A stretch of DNA of 63,033 nucleotides, the filler included, from Stramenopiles sp. TOSAG23-6 (taxonomy: Eukaryota): assembly GCA_900128565.1 (NCBI GenBank). It is 12 parts of 12 records of this genome, joined end to end, with 100 filler letters (N's around TTAATTAATTAA, not from the genome) between each part and the next. Parts side by side here need not be neighbours in the genome. Positions count along the whole stretch, not along the records: positions 47,396 to 52,545 come from LT636967.1; 11 more parts are not named here. The stretch is one strand, 5' to 3'. Shown here piece after piece: positions 45,401 through 56,100 of this stretch; position 1 is the first letter of the stretch; the number at the start of each line of letters is the position of its first letter. Both the position numbers and the translations under genes were made by a program. The notes beneath the pieces are model-generated. The model was given only the letters and a program-made list of their open reading frames with translations, was not told the origin of the DNA and did not search any database.

Positions 45401-46677
45401 ATTTTTTGAATCAGATCCAATTTCTTTTCTAGTGTTGTTTTCATCTTGAAAAATTCTTCTTTAAATACAGTCATATCGGGCATAGACATTACGTTGATAC
45501 TCTCTGGAGAATCATCTTCAGAAGTAGCGCTTACTTGACTGTTCAGTATATTGTCTCCTATGATACTTTTATTATTATTTTCCCCAGGTAAATCAACACC
45601 AAGAGTTTTATTCATCTTTGGCTTACCATTTCTCATAATAGTATTTCTAAATTTAGACACTACGCTTTCCTTGCTCATTCGCATCTCTAGAGCTCTATTA
45701 TTTTTTTCAATATTTTGTGTCATTTTCATGTGACGTTTTAGTAAGTTTGCGTGTTCATCTTTCATTACATTTAAATCCGCAACTATCAATTTTGTGTTTT
45801 GAGTGTACTCAACTTTGAGATCCATTAATTGTCTCGAAAGTTTTTCGTTTTGTAGAGTTGTCTGTTCTATCATTTTTAAAAACATACTTTCGATACTAGA
45901 TGGCACTTCACCAGAAATTCCATTTTTATTGGCATCATTTATATCAGATTTTGATTCTAACTTAGTCTCCAGTATAGGACCAAAAAAGGGATCGAATAAA
46001 GTCGTGATTTCACCATCATTGTGTTCAGAGCTGGCCTTTTGTTTTACATGAGATTGTGTATCTACACGCGAGCCCCATCCTGCAGATTTTTGATCAGCCG
46101 CAGAACTAACTAATTCGTTGTAGACTGACGCCGCTGCAGGTAATCTTTCCTTGGCAGAAGGCGGGCGGCGTTTTGCCGCTGAAAAATCTTTATCCCATTG
46201 TTTTCTTGCTTTCATTTTTCTATTCTCTAACCGCTTATTATTTTGTTCTCGTTCGTACCATGATGGGTCAGAAGATGATGTGGGCTGCCAATCAAGAGAA
46301 TGCTTTACACGTCTTGATTTGGGGCGTAGTAGAAGATAATCTGCTTTTGGATTACGATTGTCTATTCGTGTGTCACCTCGTGAAGTCACAACAATTCCAG
46401 GCTTTGGTGAGTAAATTCCAGGCGACTTGTATGCGTGACGCATTTTTTCAATAGACTTTTCCATATTTGCATTTTCTTCATCTTATATCTTTTGCCTAAT
46501 TTTTCTCTGTGCTGCAGTAGCACCAACGGCATTTCTATTTGGGAAGTTGACAGGTGCACTCGTATCCATAAGGCTATTGCCGGGTCCCATTTTGGCAGAA
46601 GTTGAAGTTACCGAATTTAAGCGATCTTTTTGAAATTTTAATTGTCTTTTCCACGCTTCCTTTTGCCAAGACTGCAT
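42416..46677 (-). CDS. Very large intronless alpha-helical hypothetical protein; in-frame TAA at 46485-46483 and an N gap at 45226-45290
   Basis: Three consecutive same-strand ORFs; the first two are in frame across one TAA, and the frame is open across the gap. Confidence 0.6.
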
Positions 46678-47395
46678 CGTTGAAATTAAAAAAGTCTGTG
46701 AGAGTACAGAAAAGATAATGAGGTAAACAAAGTGAGACAAACTTTTTTTTGTTGTAACGGCGGTACGTTAATTAATTTTTTAAAACACGAAATAATAAAA
46801 AATAAAAAAAAAAAAACGTAGAGGGGGGGTCATTCAAGCCTTTTTTATCCTCGCACCATGCGCCCGTCGCAGTATTATATGAGAGGGGTAGTCTCCATAG
46901 AATTTTGAAAAAAAAAAATCGTCAAATTTATTAAATTTATTTAATGAAATTAAATAGACGAGTTTCTTCGTGGTACTCCCCTTATATCCAATTTTTCATT
47001 TTTCAAGATTATGAAAAGTAGTGACACTCAAAAAAACTCAAAAAAACTCAAAAAAACTCAAAAAAACATTTCCTATTTTTGAGCAGTTACTGGAGTAGTA
47101 ATAGATTTCAAATGGCAGTTATTTTTATCATATCTTTTGATCTCTTGATTTTCTTTTTTAAATAAATTGTATGAGTACAAATGAATTAAACTTAAAAAAA
47201 TATTTTTGATATAGTATAAATTTATTTTTAGAACATTCAATCAAAAATAACAGTACAAACAAAAAGTATTGATTATTTTCACCGCCAAGAAGAATNNNNN
47301 NNNNNNNNNNNNNNNNNNNNNNNNNNNNNNNNNNNNNNNTTAATTAATTAANNNNNNNNNNNNNNNNNNNNNNNNNNNNNNNNNNNNNNNNNNNN

Positions 47396-48125
47396 TTTTT
47401 AGTGCTTCTTTTTTTAGTGCTTCTTTTTTTAGTGCTTCTTTTTTTAGTGCTTCTTTTTTTAGTGCTTCTTTTTCAGCTGCTTCTTTTTCAGCTGCTTCTT
47501 TTTCAGCTGCTTCTTTTTCAGCTGCTTCTTTGTTTAGTGCTTCTTTTTCAGCTGCTTCTTTTTTTAGTGCTTCTCTTTCAGCTATTTCTTTTTCAGCTAT
47601 TTCTTTTTTTAGTGCTTCTTTTTCTTTGGAAAATACAATACACTTATTATTGCTTTGTTCAATGTCATTATCTTTTGGTTGTATAGTAATTGGTTCTATT
47701 TCGTTTTTGCTTTCTTCTTGTGCTAAAGACAATTGATTGCTTTTAGATCTATCTACCAATCGAGTTGGTGAATGTGATTTTGAATAGCTATCATTTCTTT
47801 GTCGTCCAGAGGAAGAAGAGGATGATTTCCGATGTCGACGCTTTGGTGACTTTGATGTGGAGTATGTTGAAGAGCTCTCTTTTGAATTTGAACGTCTTCT
47901 TCTTGGAGATCTTCTATTTGCTGGGGGTGTTTTTGGTGGGACTCCATATTTTTTAATCACATCTCCCAAAAGCTGATCCTCTATTCCTTTGTACATTTCT
48001 AATAACCGGTCAACAAATGCAATTTTATCAGTCAAGCCGTGCGACTCGTAAAAGTCAATTACACTGGTTTTAATCATTTTAACTTTGCTGACATGTTCAC
48101 CCTCCTCTTGTACAGTTTTTTTCAT
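47396..48125 (-). CDS. Protein with a protist 'FYxxHxxxK..VDxLLxxYxGxExxL..KKYG' domain, an SR-rich region and 15-bp EKEAA/KKEAL repeats; 3'-partial
   Basis: ORF translation; pentapeptide repeat at 47396-47615. Confidence 0.7.
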
Positions 48126-48474
48126 ACTTTTTCAAATATGTTTCAAATACTCAGGTCTATGACTCTATACTGTATGAAGAAACACACTTAATTGTTAATC
48201 ACGTGTAGAGCGTTTACTTATATTAATTTTTTCTCAGTGTACGTGTAGGGCTACTATATATATATATTCTAAAAAAATCTAAAAAAAAATGATAAAAAAA
48301 AAACGCAAAAACAACGGTTGTAAACCCTAACCCTAGGTAATTGACATCAAACACAAACCCAAAAAAACCAAAAAACGCGACTTGATCTGATCGATTGTTT
48401 TTGTTAACATTATCAATATACGTAGCTAGGTAATATTTTATTATCATTGTGTTTACAGATTACATATCATTACA

Positions 48475-48876
48475 ATGAGTGGGAAGAATGATGAAAAGAC
48501 AACGGATTCAAAAAGGCGTGAGCTTCGTACGAGAAAAGTTCGCCCATCAGCAGAATCTAAAGAGCATAAACAGCTACGAATAAAGCTGAATATATGTAAA
48601 CGCTGCGAAAAAGAAATTGCATATAATGCAAAGGAAATAATTATGCAGAAGGAGCGTTTACAGAAAATGAAAGATGAAGGTAAAGATGAGTATACACTTA
48701 AAAAGGCACAAGAGGTGGTAGATGATACAACGCAAATGATACCTGGTCTAAAAGCAAACCTAAAGAAATATGTAGAAGACTTATCAAAGTATATGTCAGA
48801 TAATGAAGAAAAGATTTCGTCTTCACCACACTACACTGATGCCAAAGCTATCGTCGAAACACTTGACACTGCCTAA
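48475..48876 (+). CDS. TBCA: Tubulin-specific chaperone A
   Basis: KQLRIKLNICKRCEKEIAY..KMKDEGKDEYTLKKAQEVVDDTTQMIP. Confidence 0.9.
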   Translation: MSGKNDEKTTDSKRRELRTRKVRPSAESKEHKQLRIKLNICKRCEKEIAYNAKEIIMQKERLQKMKDEGKDEYTLKKAQEVVDDTTQMIPGLKANLKKYVEDLSKYMSDNEEKISSSPHYTDAKAIVETLDTA

Positions 48877-49175
48877 AAACCTAAAAATAAAAAAGATAAC
48901 AAAAATATAATGTTTTCATATATATATATAGAGAGAGAGATGTNATCGNTTTTTNAATGTCTANANTTTATAGAATTCATCTGTTGCCTTCTTTTTTATT
49001 CATAGATTTCCATAGATTCCATCCCTTTTCTTTTTTTTTTCCTAACTTTCAAAATTTTCAATATTTTCAATGGTACGACATCTCGTAGTATATATAATAA
49101 ACACTAGCTACTGTAGCTAGAATGTAGTAGTACTGAATATTTAATACATGAATATTTCACAACTTTTTATGTTTT

Positions 49176-52100
49176 TTATGTTGTGACAAATTTTCTGCAT
49201 TTCGTGAAATAGTAAAAAAAATTATGAAAATGAGAACCCTAACCCTACCAATATAGTTAATATATACAAAATATATACAAAATATTTCAAAATTTAAAAA
49301 AAAAAAAAAAAAAAGAAATGTATGATTGTATGATTGTTAACTTACATTACTTCATTGTATTTTTCAGGAATTTCTATATCTTTTGGAGGATTTCCTATTG
49401 TTTGGTTTTTTAGATATATACACTATACATAAATATTATAAATTCGAAATTCGTTAGGGTTAGGGTTTACATTTTTTTTTGTATAGTTTCATTAGGGTTA
49501 GGGTTAAAAAAAAACTCTTATAATTTTTTTTTAACAATTATGAAAAAGTATGCAAACACACATATTTGAAAAAAAAAAGGAAATTTAAAGCATTCAAATC
49601 ATTGAATATATCAATCATATTGTAAAAGTAAAAACTTTCTATTATATTTTTTTGAACTAAAAAAAAAAAAATTTAGATAATTTTTTTTTTTCATAGTAAA
49701 ATTTGTACCTAACAAAAAAAAACATTGAAAAAAAATAAAACGTACACAACCTCTAAATTTTTTGTTTGTAATAAATTATCAGGAATCGTAGATATTTCAT
49801 TATTATTGAGATAACTGTAAAAATTGAAATATATACAATGTTTGTTTTTGATTAGGGTTAAAGTACAACAAAATAACATAATTGATTTCAAATTATCTAT
49901 GAAAAAAAATCCATCGACAATTTGAATTTTTTTTTTCGTACGAAATTTTGTACCTAATAAAAAAAATAAAAAAATCAAACGTACAGTTTTTCCACAAATA
50001 AACTTAAATTGATAATATCTTTGACAATGTTTTGAAAACCTGCATCCTTGATACCACAATTGTTTAACATCCTACAATATAAAAACATATATAAACATTT
50101 TTTTACCATTTAGTACGTTTTTTTTGTTTTTTTGTTTTTTTGTTTTTTTGTTTCGTACGAAATTTTCATAGTAAAATGATTTTTTTTTATCATTTTTTTG
50201 TAAACAATGATAGAATAAAAAAAATGAAATGTATAAAAAATAAACCCTAATACATATGTATCTATATGAAAAGAAATCCAAATCGAAACAAAAAAAGATT
50301 AAAAAACTTTAAAGATAAAAACTTTTTTTTTTGTTTTTTTTGTTTTTTTTTGTTTAGGTACAAAATTTCGTACAATATATATATATATTATATATCACAT
50401 ACAATGTTCGTAACGATATCAATTTTGAAATGTTTGGTGGTAGAATTGTTCCTGATGATAATAGAGGATTTCCTGATACGTTTAACGTCTCTATACTTGA
50501 AAGACTATGTATTTTGGAAAAATATTTCAAAAACAAAAAAAATCGTTAGGTACAAAATTTCGTACGAAAAAAAAATAGAATTTGAAAAAAAAAAATAAAA
50601 CATACATCTATATTTGTAGGTATTTTTGTTATTGTGTTTGTTGAATTGGTTTTAGTGTTATCAGTACTTAGATCTCTATAATGTGTTGAAGTATCTCTAA
50701 AAGTTTTTTTTTCTCTGAGTTAGTTGAAAAAATAAACAATGTTTTTTTTTCCATTTTTTTTTGCATGAAATTTTCATAGTAAAAATAAAAAATTAAAAAA
50801 AACATACAAAATCTTTAGCTGCTTTGCCTTCAATTCTTCATTTAAATTGGAGAATCTATCATCATTTATCTTGCAGTTTTGCAATTTTCTTTGATGTATT
50901 ATTATGTATTTAGTATCAAAACAAAAATGTTAGGTACAAAATGTACAATCAGCAAAGTATGGAAAAAATACTCAAAAGTAGATTGTAGAAAAAAAACTGT
51001 TAGGTACAAAATTTCGTACGAAAAACAAATAGTACGTACAATGTTTTGAGATCTTCATCAGCCATTGATTGAAACATTTCGGTGCCACTGGTATCATGTA
51101 TTGTTAAAAAATATTTTTTTTTTTGTTTTTTGGTTAGGTACAAAATTTACTACAAAAAAAAATTTGAAAAAAAAAATTGAAAAAAAAATAAAAACGTACT
51201 TTGTCATTGTAGTCGAACAGTGTGCCGCCAAACATTGGAAAGTTTTTTGGCACAGGTGGAAGAAATGGACTTGCATTATAATTTAAACTGAAGTCTCTTT
51301 GTTGTGAAAATAATTCAATAATAAATTAGGGTTAGGGACTAAAGTGTATCTGTAACCGTTTTCTAAGGATTTTCTAAGGATGTATAGAGTTAGAATAAAA
51401 AATGTTTGAACAGAGAAATCAAATAATTGTTGAAAAAGTAAATAAAAATCAATTATATACCAATAAATACTACTACATACATGGATTTCACAAAGTTGAA
51501 AATATTACTGTACTGCTCCACATTCACTAATTCATTGTCACTCAAGTTTCTGTATAAAAAAATTCAAAATTGGTCAATATTTATTTGTTAGGTATGAAAT
51601 TTCGTACCAAAAAAAAAAAAAAAAAAAAAAAAAACGAATACAATAAGGGTACAAAAATGTATTTGTTAGGTATGAAATTTCGTACCAAAAAAAAAAAAAT
51701 TACAAAACATGATTAGGGTTAGGGTTCTCCACGTACAAATCGTCCAAAAAATACGACATGTCCCAATTATACACAGCCTTGTTTGAGGGCAGGTTTGTTA
51801 GATCTATAAACGTTGGATTTTTGATTGAATGTATTTTGGAAAAATATTTAAAAAAAAAAATTTTGAAAATTTTGTTAGGTACAAAATTTTCAAAAAAAAA
51901 TTTAGACAAAAAATTGAAAAAATATACAATGTACTTGTGGCCTAAGTAATGTTTGATCAAATGAAACCGTTAATTTGTAAATCTTATTATTTTGCAAATT
52001 TCTATACAGTTACAAAATATGTCAAAAAAATATTTTAATAAGTATTCAATTTTTTTTTTCGTAAAAAAATTTCATACCAAACAAAAAAAAAATCAAAAAA

Positions 52101-52486
52101 AAGATTCAAAATTTTTTGATACTATTTTTAAATTATACAATCAATGTAATTATTATTGGAAATAACCTACACTTTTTTTAGGGAAAACATTTCAAATAAA
52201 ATAAAATTAATCTTTATCTCGGTTAGTCTATTATTAGATGCGTCCCTTTTGAGTTTGAGTAAGATTTTTTTTTTTTTTGAAAATTGTTTTTTGTTAGGTA
52301 TGAAATTTCGTATGAAAAAAAAAAAAAAACATGCTGAAAATATACACAAAAAGAAAGATGATGAAAATAAATATTTGCAATTACATAATATATAATTCAG
52401 TAAATATTTCAACATACAATGTTTCCAAAATTGTTAGGCTGCCAATCTCTGAAGGTAAGTTTTCTAATTGGTTGTTGTTGACATAT
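49176..52486 (-). CDS. Intron-dense LRR protein; 5'-partial. Exons 52486-52418, 52245-52171, 52001-51935, 51828-51737, 51549-51481, 51296-51200, 51095-51040, 50888-50808, 50675-50606, 50506-50403, 50071-49985, 49814-49746, 49417-49346, 49194-49176
   Basis: Manual splicing gives YVNNNQLENLPSEIGSLTILETL, LNVSGNPLL..LPPNISKLISLRTL and YLNNNEISTIPDNLLQTKNLEVV; 69-75-nt phase-2 exons are typical of LRR genes. Confidence 0.75.
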
Positions 52487-52645
52487 CTACACTGTAACAA
52501 AATATATACAAAATCAATATTATACAATGAGAAAACTGCAAGAATNNNNNNNNNNNNNNNNNNNNNNNNNNNNNNNNNNNNNNNNNNNNTTAATTAATTA
52601 ANNNNNNNNNNNNNNNNNNNNNNNNNNNNNNNNNNNNNNNNNNNN

Positions 52646-53015
52646 GAAACCATGAATGTTTTATTTTTTTTTCAATTTTGAATTTTGTTTTTTTGTATGA
52701 AATTTCGTACCTAACAAATTTTACCAAAAAAACAAAAAAACAAATTTCACAATATATGTACCCGATCAGATTAATGGTTCTCGAGATAATTTCAGTATAT
52801 TTGTATTTAGCAAAGATCGAAAAAAAGCATCAAAACTTTTACATGATAATTTTGTAGGTCGAAAAATTCGAAGGATGAATTTACTTGGGGCAGTGAAATA
52901 TTTTTCCAAAATACATACCTTTTGGAAACAGCAAGGAATGTTACGCGAAGTAAAAGCAAGTTTTTTACGACCTAAAAGTGACAAAAAAGATTCACCAAAA
53001 ATGAGTGTTTCATAA
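52646..53015 (+). CDS. C-terminal fragment of an unknown protein. Intron 52654-52757 (GA...AT)
   Basis: Open frame from 52758 to TAA 53015 following a family intron. Confidence 0.45.
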
Positions 53016-53109
53016 TTGAGTCCATAATAGAAAAATAAATTTATTTTTAAAGATGCACTTACATTCAATCTAAATCACATTAAATGTGCGTCAAATACGC
53101 CATATGCGG

Positions 53110-53151
<42 letters not shown>

Positions 53152-53189
53152 AAAATGGTTCTAACAATTTTATTTTTTTGAATTTTTTT

Positions 53190-56100
53190 TCATCGTGTAT
53201 TATTTGCTGTAGGTGTATGGTTCAGTGTGTAAAGTTTAGACATTTTACTCACTGAAATTAGAATTTCATTTGGTGATGAATCTGGAGATAACTCAAGTAT
53301 ATCTCGTAGATGATTCATTGTTTGTACCAAACATCGAACAAATTGAATTCCATAGTGTTTTTCGTTTTTATTTGATATGACGTAATTTATTTCGTTTTTA
53401 TCTTCATATTTGATTGAAGAAGAATTTTCATTCTCATACAATGTTTCCTTGCATTCTTTAGAATTTTCTGTATTCTTCTTTTTTTTGCATTCTTTAGAAT
53501 TTTCTGTATTCTTCTTTTTTTCATTCATTAAACATCTAACAGCTTTTAGACAATCTTCAGGTGAAACTATATCTTCTGATTTTTTATACAATAACAAAGT
53601 TTCAGAGAGAGATTGAATGAATTTTTTTGTTTCAGAATGAAATAAGAAAAGTTCATTCATTTTTGAAAGACTTTCTTCAAGTGTGACACTAAATAATCTC
53701 TGAAAATGAATTAATAATTGAGATAGTAATAAATCTGACTTCTTATTAATGACGTCACTCGCATTACTATAAATTGACTCTCCGTGAAGAACATTCGATT
53801 CAATATCAATTAATTCACTCACAGCGGCACGTGCTTCCTCTAATGTAATTTGCGATATTTTCATATTCCCTACGTTGCATTTTGCTGGAATGCTTTTTGT
53901 GGTATCAAATTGTTGTTCATTTTGTTCTTTATTTAATTTATGTAATTTTCTTCGACTTAATTCGTTCAAAATATTTGTTGTAAATGATAATGATTCTTCC
54001 CGTTTATTTAATCTATCTTTCCATATATTGTGAAAAAATATGTTTTACATAAAAAAAATGAGTTAAAACTTTCAGACTTTTTAAGAAAAATAAANAAAAA
54101 TGAAAAAAAAAAAAAAAATCATAGAGAACTCCGTAGTTAAGCAAAAAAAGTTGAAATTTCATGATAAAAACGTATATTTCACTAGTACTGGTACAGCATT
54201 ATTGATATCCTGTTGAGTTAGAGCAGAACCAGGAGATGATTCCACTTCACCTTTTTTATGAAAGATTAAACTAAGAACTTTTCGTACAAATTGTTCCATT
54301 TTTGGAACCGCCAAAATAACTCTACTCATCCTCTCAAGAGATGGAAGAATCATGTATTGTGATAAAATATGTTTTTTTCGTAATAAAAAAATGTTACAAA
54401 ATCTTGATTTTTTAGGGAAAAAATCAATTTGAAATGAATGATGAAAACATACATTGCAGCATCATTAAGTTTCAGTTTCCGGCAGATATCAGAAAGAATT
54501 TCACGCGCCTCATCACCCGAATACTTGCTTATTCTATTCAAACCCAACTTATTTGATTCACGGTCCTTACGCAGTAATGCTCTTGTGCCAGTAAACTTTC
54601 GCAATGTTTTACTATCATCAACGCCATCGTTACATCCCAATAAGTCTTCATACATTTCACATTTTTGTTTTAACTCAAGAATGTTCCGCTTCGCTAAACG
54701 CCACTGGTCATTTGTAGGACGACTATCAAGTTCATTCTGCATTATAATAATACGTTCTTCAAATGTAGCATTTTGTTTCATATACAATTCGATTTCTTTA
54801 CTTAACGATTTCATTTGAGTATGCAATTGTTTTTCTTTCTTATAATGATTATCCTCAATTTGTTTCGCATCTCTCTCCAACAAAATAATTTGCTTGCGTA
54901 ATGCCATTTCGTCAACTCCACCTAATACACCTGGCGCAAAACCAATTTTTTTATCAATATCCCTGTATAATGCAAGCGATCGAGATCGTTTTGATAATCG
55001 AATTGTCTGTGTTGGATCATATGCAACTCCTTCGCGATCATATACAACACCTTCATCATTATTATATGCAACTCCTTCGCGATCATATACAACACCTTCA
55101 TCATTATCTACGTTGCCAGCACCGAGCATTTCATCTTTATTAATTGTAGTCATCCCACGAACAGAGGAAAGTATCTTATTTTCAATATTTCTTTGTTCAT
55201 CATTTGATCTCTGAAGTTCTGCGCGTAGAGCTTGAATCTCAATTAAATGGAGTTTTCGTTCTTCATCAAACATTGTTACTATCTCAAGCCATTTACGCTC
55301 ATTGGAAGAAACATTGCGTATGTTTTTCCCTATATATTTTTCATATAAAGTCTTTGAAAAATCTTTTCTTGATCTATCTCGAGATTCAAATGATTCAATT
55401 TTTTTACGCAATTTTTCAAATTTAGACTCCCAGAGGAGAACTCTACCTTCTGAGTAAACAATACGTCTTTGAGCATTTTTCTCTTTTTTTTTCTGTTTAT
55501 CGAATAACAATTTTGTGTGTTTTCGTTCTGCAGCTAATTCATTTTCTAATTTTACTATTTTTTCCTGTGTGTCTTTGAATTTTTTTTCCATTTTTTTATC
55601 CGTATTTGTTTGGTTAGGGTTAGGGTTAGGCTTCACTTTCTTAAATTTTTTCCCTGACATCCAACCGGGTTTTCGAATCGATGTTGGTGATGGGCCACTT
55701 GATGACAAAGTATGATTTTGATTAGATTTTTGAAATCGTGGGTGTACCTTACTAGGACTGATAATAGTATCTTTAATGACGTCACCACGATGTTGGCATT
55801 CTGCCAAAACTTCTTGAATATAATGTAAAGTAAGCTCAACTGACTTATCAGCATTTCTTGGTACAGATGCAAAACCATATCGAATGAGCAACCTATTAAT
55901 ACCAGTGCGAAGGTTCACTTCTTCTTTTTTCACATCATTTTCTAATCTATTCATATCAATACGAAGATTCAGTCCTATTTTTTTCGAATCGATTATTGAA
56001 TCATTCTTTTGATTTTTTTGTTTTTTTTTGTTCCTTCCTACAAACAAAGAATTTTCAGACTTTGACTCATGAACCATTGACGATAGCAATGGAGTATATG

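Follow-up and report, generated by a model that had tools for sequence, protein, structure and literature searches.

The stramenopile Stramenopiles sp. TOSAG23-6 (assembly GCA_900128565.1) harbours a repetitive family of predicted GT-AT introns of about 100 nt, together with a U1 small nuclear RNA (snRNA) whose altered 5' end is the exact complement of the family's exon-donor junction, and a leucine-rich repeat (LRR) gene in which introns ending in AG stand beside copies of this family ending in CAT. The gene lies on contig C2072 within the 63,033-nt stretch that we analysed (the window), a string of contigs of about 5 kb from an incomplete source assembly of 21 Mb and 6236 contigs, in which even EF-1alpha gave no match above the cut-off. 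One gene of the assembly has an identical protein (P0141) whose EukProt label points to MAST. To our knowledge, a terminal AG is a near-universal property of introns. The explanation that accounts best for the data, and which we consider probable, is that the family represents a DNA element that duplicates two nucleotides of its target, that its copies are spliced with the help of the matching U1, and that the AG-ending introns form a class of other descent.

A family of introns ending in AT

The family was surveyed in 120 sequences (661 kb in all, partly selected for containing copies), copies being called from patterns for the core, the tail and the donor without use of the last three nucleotides. 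The consensus reads GTAYGTTT...TACGAAATTTTGTACCTAAC...AAATAC, with TACGAAATTTTGTACCTAAC as the core. Among the 165 copies found, 134 end in AT and five in AG, the last triplets being CAT (109), TAT (24), CTT (8), CAC (5), TTT (4), CGT (3), other non-AG triplets (seven, one of them AAT) and the five with AG. The copies reside in unrelated genes and have a median pairwise identity of 70% (maximum 92%, 300 sampled pairs); a rough first look at the whole genome gave 4066 candidates. Relative to the gene, 95 copies are in sense orientation and one is antisense, with 69 unclear, and their lengths are evenly distributed modulo 3 (36/34/36, n = 106), on which ground translated in-frame inserts were rejected. 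A branch-like CTAAC precedes the 3' end by a median of 40 nt (5-95% range 33-48).

Cutting from the GT to the family end preserves the independently inferred frame in 73 of the 85 testable copies, the other 80 having no confident frame, whereas the first AG after the branch site does so in only 27 of the 85. With an out-of-register AG within 15 nt, 17 of 20 cases fit the frame better at the family end, which agrees with the proposal of an earlier note on this DNA that CAT can outcompete an adjacent AG. Taken together, the reading frames would fit exact removal of GT-AT copies at the AT. An ab initio intron caller that was equally allowed AG and AT returned 2593 introns, 828 after filters, with non-family calls mostly false; because of this over-calling, we used only a strict subset of 146 introns, itself imperfect and drawn by a caller that favours AT, and give no genome-wide AG fraction. 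Of the sequence words of positions 46000-55900, 0.10 and 0.08 occur in two seawater metatranscriptome runs, a measure of word content that is no evidence on splicing.

A methylcrotonyl-CoA carboxylase beta-type gene (MCCB, a name inferred from a Pfam match and motifs) at locus L130 carries one non-family GT-AG intron followed by eight AT-ending family copies, one of them AT-AT. Scored against a profile of 91 homologues, picked by length from 149 listed, the model with the eight AT-ending introns reaches 566.5 bits, compared with 348.6 bits for the public gene model P0141, and for six of the eight the best GT/GC-AG alternative is missing or 8-30 bits worse. No usable AG is offered by conserved motifs of MCCB or, at locus L045, by the GTPase motifs GKSTVMGH and RERGVTID, read by eye. 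These conserved motifs bear on the alternative that the copies are not spliced at AT at all, being assembly artefacts, or removed from the DNA, or cut at nearby in-frame AGs. Such AGs do lie near some copies (the introns at 51934 and 50605 of the LRR gene), contigs appear wrongly joined through the repeats (C3348 compared with C2072, see below), and the case for AT splicing comes from DNA. However, AG-compatibility among 186 called introns stays at the level of a control dinucleotide (32 versus 31), and the sense bias of 95 to 1 and the matching U1 also speak against this alternative, which in our view is hardly credible.

Some family copies begin with AT in place of GT, as at L130:849-747 (minus strand), in the region of position 15585 of the window and in several cases seen by eye. 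Loci L130 and L030 are dense with copies, and no intron was seen in the coding regions of Prp8 (L048:1724-9150) and of a Hsp90-family, Grp94-like gene (L108:1501-3180); selection against copies in some genes is possible.

Probable origin of the AT in a two-nucleotide target duplication

In 118 of the 165 copies, the two bases that close the intron repeat the dinucleotide found just before the donor. For dinucleotides other than AT, 15 such matches were observed against 1.95 expected, with a maximum of 8 in 20,000 shuffles. The correlation between exon and intron end holds at -1 and -2 and is absent at -3 and at +1 to +5, a limit on which a 4-nt duplication of ATGT was rejected. From the most to the least consensus-like tertile, the match declines from 51 to 37 and 30 of 55 (p = 7e-6), as predicted for a 2-nt target duplication that decays over time. 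The family thus combines many similar introns in unrelated genes with a target duplication present in 51 of 55 of its most consensus-like members, as introners do, and introners that co-opt their acceptor from such a duplication are a known precedent (PMC11282704).

The inverted ends of the family amount to GTAT/ATAC, a few bases only. Searches with three transposase families gave no match for PF02992, two for PF13358 and one for PF03184, none of them bounded by family ends. Locus L171:735-2460 holds an IS630/Tc1-type transposase frame that looks intact, flanked on one side by a lone family 3' tail and on the other by a full copy in the same orientation; these flanking sequences are not inverted ends.

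A U1 snRNA that matches the family

The genes of U5, U2, U1 and U4 form an intact cluster, head to tail within 640 nt (L011:9-645; contig C1146 and also C6122), with spacers of 2 to 23 nt, and are possibly expressed as one transcript. The 5' end of U1 reads AAACGUACAUG, compared with the Rfam consensus AUACUUACCUG, and the three changes U2A, U5G and C9A render it fully complementary to CAU/GUACGUUU of the family (the slash marks the junction). C9 is normally conserved and pairs with the last nucleotide of the exon. The altered form is the only U1 sequence found in the incomplete assembly, identical in two contigs. In silico, pairing is stronger with the variant than with standard U1 for 157 of the 165 family donors, equal for two and weaker for six (median -9.5 versus -1.9 kcal/mol), and it is stronger as well for all 13 complete donors of the LRR gene, AG introns included. 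The variant would presumably be the working U1 of the organism.

The remaining machinery seems to be that of the major (U2-type) spliceosome. The GUAGUA of U2, loop 1 of U5 and the ACAGAGA of U6 are standard, and the family copies have, in silico, a U1-pairing GT donor and a branch site that pairs with U2 GUAGUA; a terminal AG occurs in 5 of 165 copies and is the rule in the LRR-boundary class. Region 1438-1617 of Prp8, which we take to be that of the 3'-site contacts, is nearly identical to its human counterpart. One U2AF65-like gene was seen, U2AF35 was not found through the CCCH family and a motif, and Slu7 but not Prp18 was found, both absences carrying little weight because the assembly is incomplete. 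Metagenomes scanned for U1 genes with C9A gave four loci, none from a relative, of which three were not U1 and one was a variant copy beside a standard U1. An unrelated, plant-like cluster at L161:2632-12914 holds four U1 genes, at least two of which have a 5' end of the C9A type and stand next to a standard gene.

The complementarity of U1 also bears on the register of the introns. Their start might lie 2 nt further upstream and their end at the AC of the element, making them AT-AC or NN-AC introns that are possibly minor-spliceosome-like; the duplicated dinucleotide gives an identical mRNA either way, and the last two bases vary more than the ATAC that precedes them, a difference partly set by the tail pattern. 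Nevertheless, U1 is complementary in the GT register, no U11 or U12 match was found in the incomplete assembly, the donors are unlike ATATCCTT (consensus from PMC5029451), and the upstream bases are not AT at MCCB intron 8 and two introns of the LRR gene, so that we regard this shift as highly improbable. A classification as U12-type introns was rejected on the same lack of U11/U12 matches in this assembly and on the difference between the donor GTAYGTTT and RTATCCTT.

Could U1 also read the 3' splice site, with C9A pairing with the terminal AT, so that a single base change would have licensed AT acceptors? Such pairing is speculative and, in our opinion, very doubtful, though C9A together with U10 and G11 would match the CAT at the exon end and at the intron end alike, and pairing of standard U1 with the 3' AG was reportedly proposed for fission yeast by Reich et al. 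in 1992. The near-identity of the Prp8 region and the missing U2AF35 would fit as well, the latter being a weak absence. However, the 2-nt duplication alone explains AT at both ends, and C9A may therefore serve the donor only; in addition, AG introns and TT, AC and GT ends persist, and in Fritillaria 3' AT goes together with a U1 that has not changed (PMC13326754). Distinctly unlikely, too, is a joint version in which the major spliceosome would have been re-tuned around one invading family, with AT as default acceptor, C9A pairing with the AT of both exon end and intron end, AG reduced to a minority and U2AF35 possibly dispensable.

Two classes of introns in the LRR gene

Spliced together, the 14 exons of the LRR gene (Table 1) yield a 342-residue LRR frame without stops. 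In this register, 10 of the 11 phase-2 acceptors at repeat boundaries are AG, as the earlier note had stated, and one, at 49418, is TAT; the ten complete introns of this class measure 132-331 nt. With AG at 4% of the dinucleotides near these ends, a binomial estimate for 10 of 11 is about 1e-13, which is overstated because the boundaries were placed with AG already known. The TAT had been presented as an exception, but an intron from GTTGTG (49750) to TAG (49423), with the same protein length and a weaker donor, is equally possible, and we do not retain 49418 as a firm non-AG case. Family fragments (15-32 bits) lie inside six of the ten complete phase-2 introns, two of them inverted; the gene's AG introns form mosaics that include sequence of the family. 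CTAAC is found 33-52 nt upstream of eight of the ten acceptors, and this distance, similar to that in family copies, would fit a 3' choice that is guided by distance and relaxed as to the dinucleotide. In 49815-49984 and 49418-49745, an inverted core flanked by runs of T and A comes after the family-like 5' end, and telomere-like CCCTAAC repeats about 40 nt upstream of the acceptor might act as a substitute branch site.

Table 1. Features of the LRR gene, with the U1 snRNA gene. Positions are those of the window unless a locus is named.
Feature	Position	Strand	Remarks
LRR gene, 14 exons visible	49176..52486	minus	contig C2072; 5' part lost at contig end 52545; last exon and stop least certain
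Truncated phase-2 intron, 3' end, TAG	52487..52545	minus	
Phase-2 intron GTATGT...AAG	52246..52417	minus	partial family match, 24 bits
Phase-2 intron GTAGGT...TAG	52002..52170	minus	weak reverse family match, 11 bits
Phase-0 family intron GTACAT...ATACAT, 106 nt	51829..51934	minus	upstream exon ends AA; 29.5 bits
Phase-2 intron GTACGT...CAG	51550..51736	minus	two family cores, 27 and 25 bits
Phase-2 intron GTATGT...AAG	51297..51480	minus	no clear family match (1 bit)
Phase-0 family intron GTACGT...ATACAT, 104 nt	51096..51199	minus	upstream exon ends AA; 29.5 bits
Phase-2 intron GTACGT...AAG	50889..51039	minus	32-bit family core; TACAT of the family type in frame 15 nt upstream of AG
Phase-2 intron GTATGT...TAG	50676..50807	minus	no clear family match (2 bits)
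Phase-0 family intron GAT/GTATGT...ATACAT/AGT, 99 nt	50507..50605	minus	nearest consensus, 59.0 bits
AG directly after CAT acceptor	50505..50506	minus	its use leaves the LRR frame
Phase-2 intron GTATGT...TAG, 331 nt	50072..50402	minus	family core, 15 bits
Phase-2 intron GTACGT...CAG	49815..49984	minus	5' end like the family's; core inverted (reverse match, 31 bits)
Phase-2 intron GTACGT...TAT	49418..49745	minus	5' end like the family's; core inverted (reverse match, 21 bits)
Last phase-2 intron GTAAGT...CAG	49195..49345	minus	no family match
U1 snRNA gene	L011:349-508		in U5-U2-U1-U4 cluster

The three phase-0 introns, which the earlier note had singled out as CAT-ending copies of about 100 nt, indeed align over the whole family profile, of whose training set they are possibly members. 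They had been placed in mid-repeat, which applies to 50605 in a regular repeat; 51934 and 51199 fall in long non-consensus inserts within a repeat. The intron 50605-50507 has AT duplicated at both ends and CTAAC 43 nt from its end, and the claim that CAT is demanded here despite an AG 2 nt further on is upheld by the LRR frame and by a profile built from 29 units of other loci, which gives 11.9 bits for CAT, 3.7 for the in-frame GAG at 50489 and 1.5 for the AG at 50505. For 51934-51829, an in-frame AAG alternative lies 51 nt downstream of the CAT; for 51199-51096, there is no in-frame AG between -36 and +60 of its end.

Contig C3348 (L002:1139-3153) repeats the LRR gene (window 50506-52520) up to the 50605-50507 intron and then enters another gene. 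The switch point lies inside the family copy, in whose tail one base differs; either the assembly was wrongly joined here across the repeat or copies have recombined. A similar frame-breaking switch occurs in L045 downstream of a family copy.

Acceptor type and the age of introns

The earlier note read the two classes as two generations, with AG introns ancestral and AT introns newly gained. Their coexistence extends beyond this gene, as non-family AG introns stand beside family AT introns in L130 and in L169/L170, but the acceptor follows descent more than age, and the strict form of the proposal, in which acceptor type is a clock, seems unlikely to us. In its favour, the three full-length copies in the LRR gene all end in CAT with AG at 10 of 11 boundaries, and AG ends within the family rise slightly with divergence, the three tertiles of 55 copies containing 0, 1 and 4 (p = 0.026 for the trend, Fisher p = 0.12 for top versus bottom). 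Also in its favour, the GT-AG introns of Fritillaria occupy conserved positions and its non-canonical ones species-specific positions (PMC11282704). Yet AT ends, at 48, 44 and 42 of 55, still dominate the most diverged tertile. Among called introns of the strict set that score below 10 bits (n = 17, some of them false), 14 are compatible with AT, four with AG and three with the control GA, and among those longer than 125 nt (n = 28) the figures are 26, four and five.

Moreover, the boundary introns of the LRR gene themselves hold family sequence, and the LRR loci L169 and L170 carry phase-2 GTAAGT...CAG introns without it, two of which, in L169, are 96% identical and therefore young though AG. 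Acceptor type is thus a clock weakly at most, and neither AT as a mark of youth nor AG as a mark of age is supported. Because diverged copies keep AT and the young introns of L169 carry AG, the two classes in the LRR gene appear to be separated by descent, and the AT class is best explained as an insertion wave of mixed ages. As to the AG class, exon duplication within the lineage has spread phase-2 introns at LRR boundaries both in Tetrahymena and in brown algae (PMC6564038, PMC11378527). Loci L164, L168, L169 and L170 belong to a large family of plant-type LRR genes with 24-residue repeats, many of them intronless and some frameshifted; a first look gave 530 candidates for PF00560.

Proposed mechanism

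We propose that a non-autonomous element of about 100 nt spreads as DNA, duplicating 2 nt of its target, mostly AT. The element would bring its own donor, branch site and U-rich tract, and the downstream copy of the duplication would become the acceptor, so that excision restores the coding sequence exactly. The major spliceosome, using the variant U1 (U2A, U5G, C9A), would remove the copies with a 3' cut about 40 nt past the branch site, just after the ATAC of the element, and AG would no longer be required. The DNA shows the repeats, their sense orientation, frame restoration at AT, the decaying duplication, the altered U1 and the coexisting non-family AG introns; transposition, splicing with this U1 and the positional 3' choice are inferences. 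The introns at LRR repeat boundaries would multiply with the repeats, keep their AG and be spliced by the same machinery, and in this gene they have acquired fragments of the family.

Several points weigh against this explanation. At 54.1 bits, the U1 sequence stays below the 69.5 bits that Rfam sets as cut-off, and as the assembly is incomplete, a standard U1 could be missing from it; in the cluster at L161, C9A-type variants coexist with a standard gene. Family donors have T at -1 (88%), A at -2 (74%), C/T at +4 (97%) and T at +7 (98%), but they were selected by a GTAYGTTT-like pattern and the fit of U1 at +4/+7 is therefore partly circular, that at -1/-2 not. An AT end despite a non-AT dinucleotide upstream occurs in 31 of 53 copies, including two of the three in the LRR gene, and needs later exon change, conversion or mis-assembly. 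Twelve of the 85 frame tests fail, some with visibly mis-called ends or contig joins and three fitting a nearby AG, and MCCB introns 6 and 9 are undecided, the AG alternative scoring -3.3 and +0.5 bits. Protein evidence does not tell GT-AT and a 1-nt slide apart, and its one case against a 2-nt slide is weak (2.9 bits). Finally, no autonomous element with matching ends was found with the three of many transposase families searched.

Comparison with known systems and significance

One of the closest parallels is Fritillaria, which shares transposon-like introns, frequent 3' AT, a U2-type spliceosome and a GT-AG minority (PMC13326754; Henriet et al. 2019 via PMC11282704), as well as a YAY triplet before the donor and at the 3' end (PMC13326754). 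Among the non-canonical introns of F. borealis and F. pellucida, 3' AT accounts for 34% and 44% (Soo et al. 2026, PMC13326754). Unlike the present genome, Fritillaria has donors that are mostly AG-, a strictly conserved U1 5' end and a duplicated, divergent U2AF (PMC13326754); here GT donors are kept, one family is dominant, U1 has three changes, one U2AF65-like gene was seen and U2AF35 was not found in the incomplete assembly.

As in the introners of Micromonas pusilla and Aureococcus, the introns are short and repeated and a target duplication supplies one splice site, the other being borne by the element, but the acceptor co-opted in Micromonas is AG with a duplication of 3 nt, compared with 2 nt, mostly AT, in our family (PMC11282704, PMC12130899). 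A 2025 introner survey lists AG and AC 3' sites and, in the part of its text available, no 'GT-AT'. A U1 5' end fitted to an atypical donor is known from Entamoeba (AACAAAC) and Mastigamoeba balamuthi (ACGUAC), the latter being the same change as U5G here, to which U2A and C9A are added; the available text of that report mentions neither a change of the base pairing with exon position -1 nor non-AG acceptors (bioRxiv 10.1101/2022.06.08.495308). Brown algal ROCO and Tetrahymena LRR genes likewise have one repeat per exon and phase-2 introns spread by exon duplication (PMC11378527, PMC6564038), whereas exon lengths are irregular here and the introns have been invaded by family fragments. No published description of a GT-AT family combined with an altered U1 was found in mostly open literature, though supplements of introner surveys could list the family, and no GT-AT-dominated genome was apparent from the titles and abstract openings of the literature searched.

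For the annotation of this organism, the findings mean that GT-AG gene models are wrong in places, as P0141 illustrates (349 versus 566 bits), and that contigs have apparently been mis-joined through the repeat. For splicing, an AT-ending majority among the sampled introns, with an AG minority persisting in the same genes and a changed U1, offers a direct test of what fixes the 3' dinucleotide, and the CAT/AG at 50507-50505 pits CAT against AG in one junction. If the joint version of a re-tuned spliceosome were true, the organism would provide a natural test of U1-assisted 3' splice-site recognition. The system also addresses which of the two adapts to the other, the spliceosome or an invading element, and the present data suggest that here the splicing machinery may have adapted to an invading intron family.

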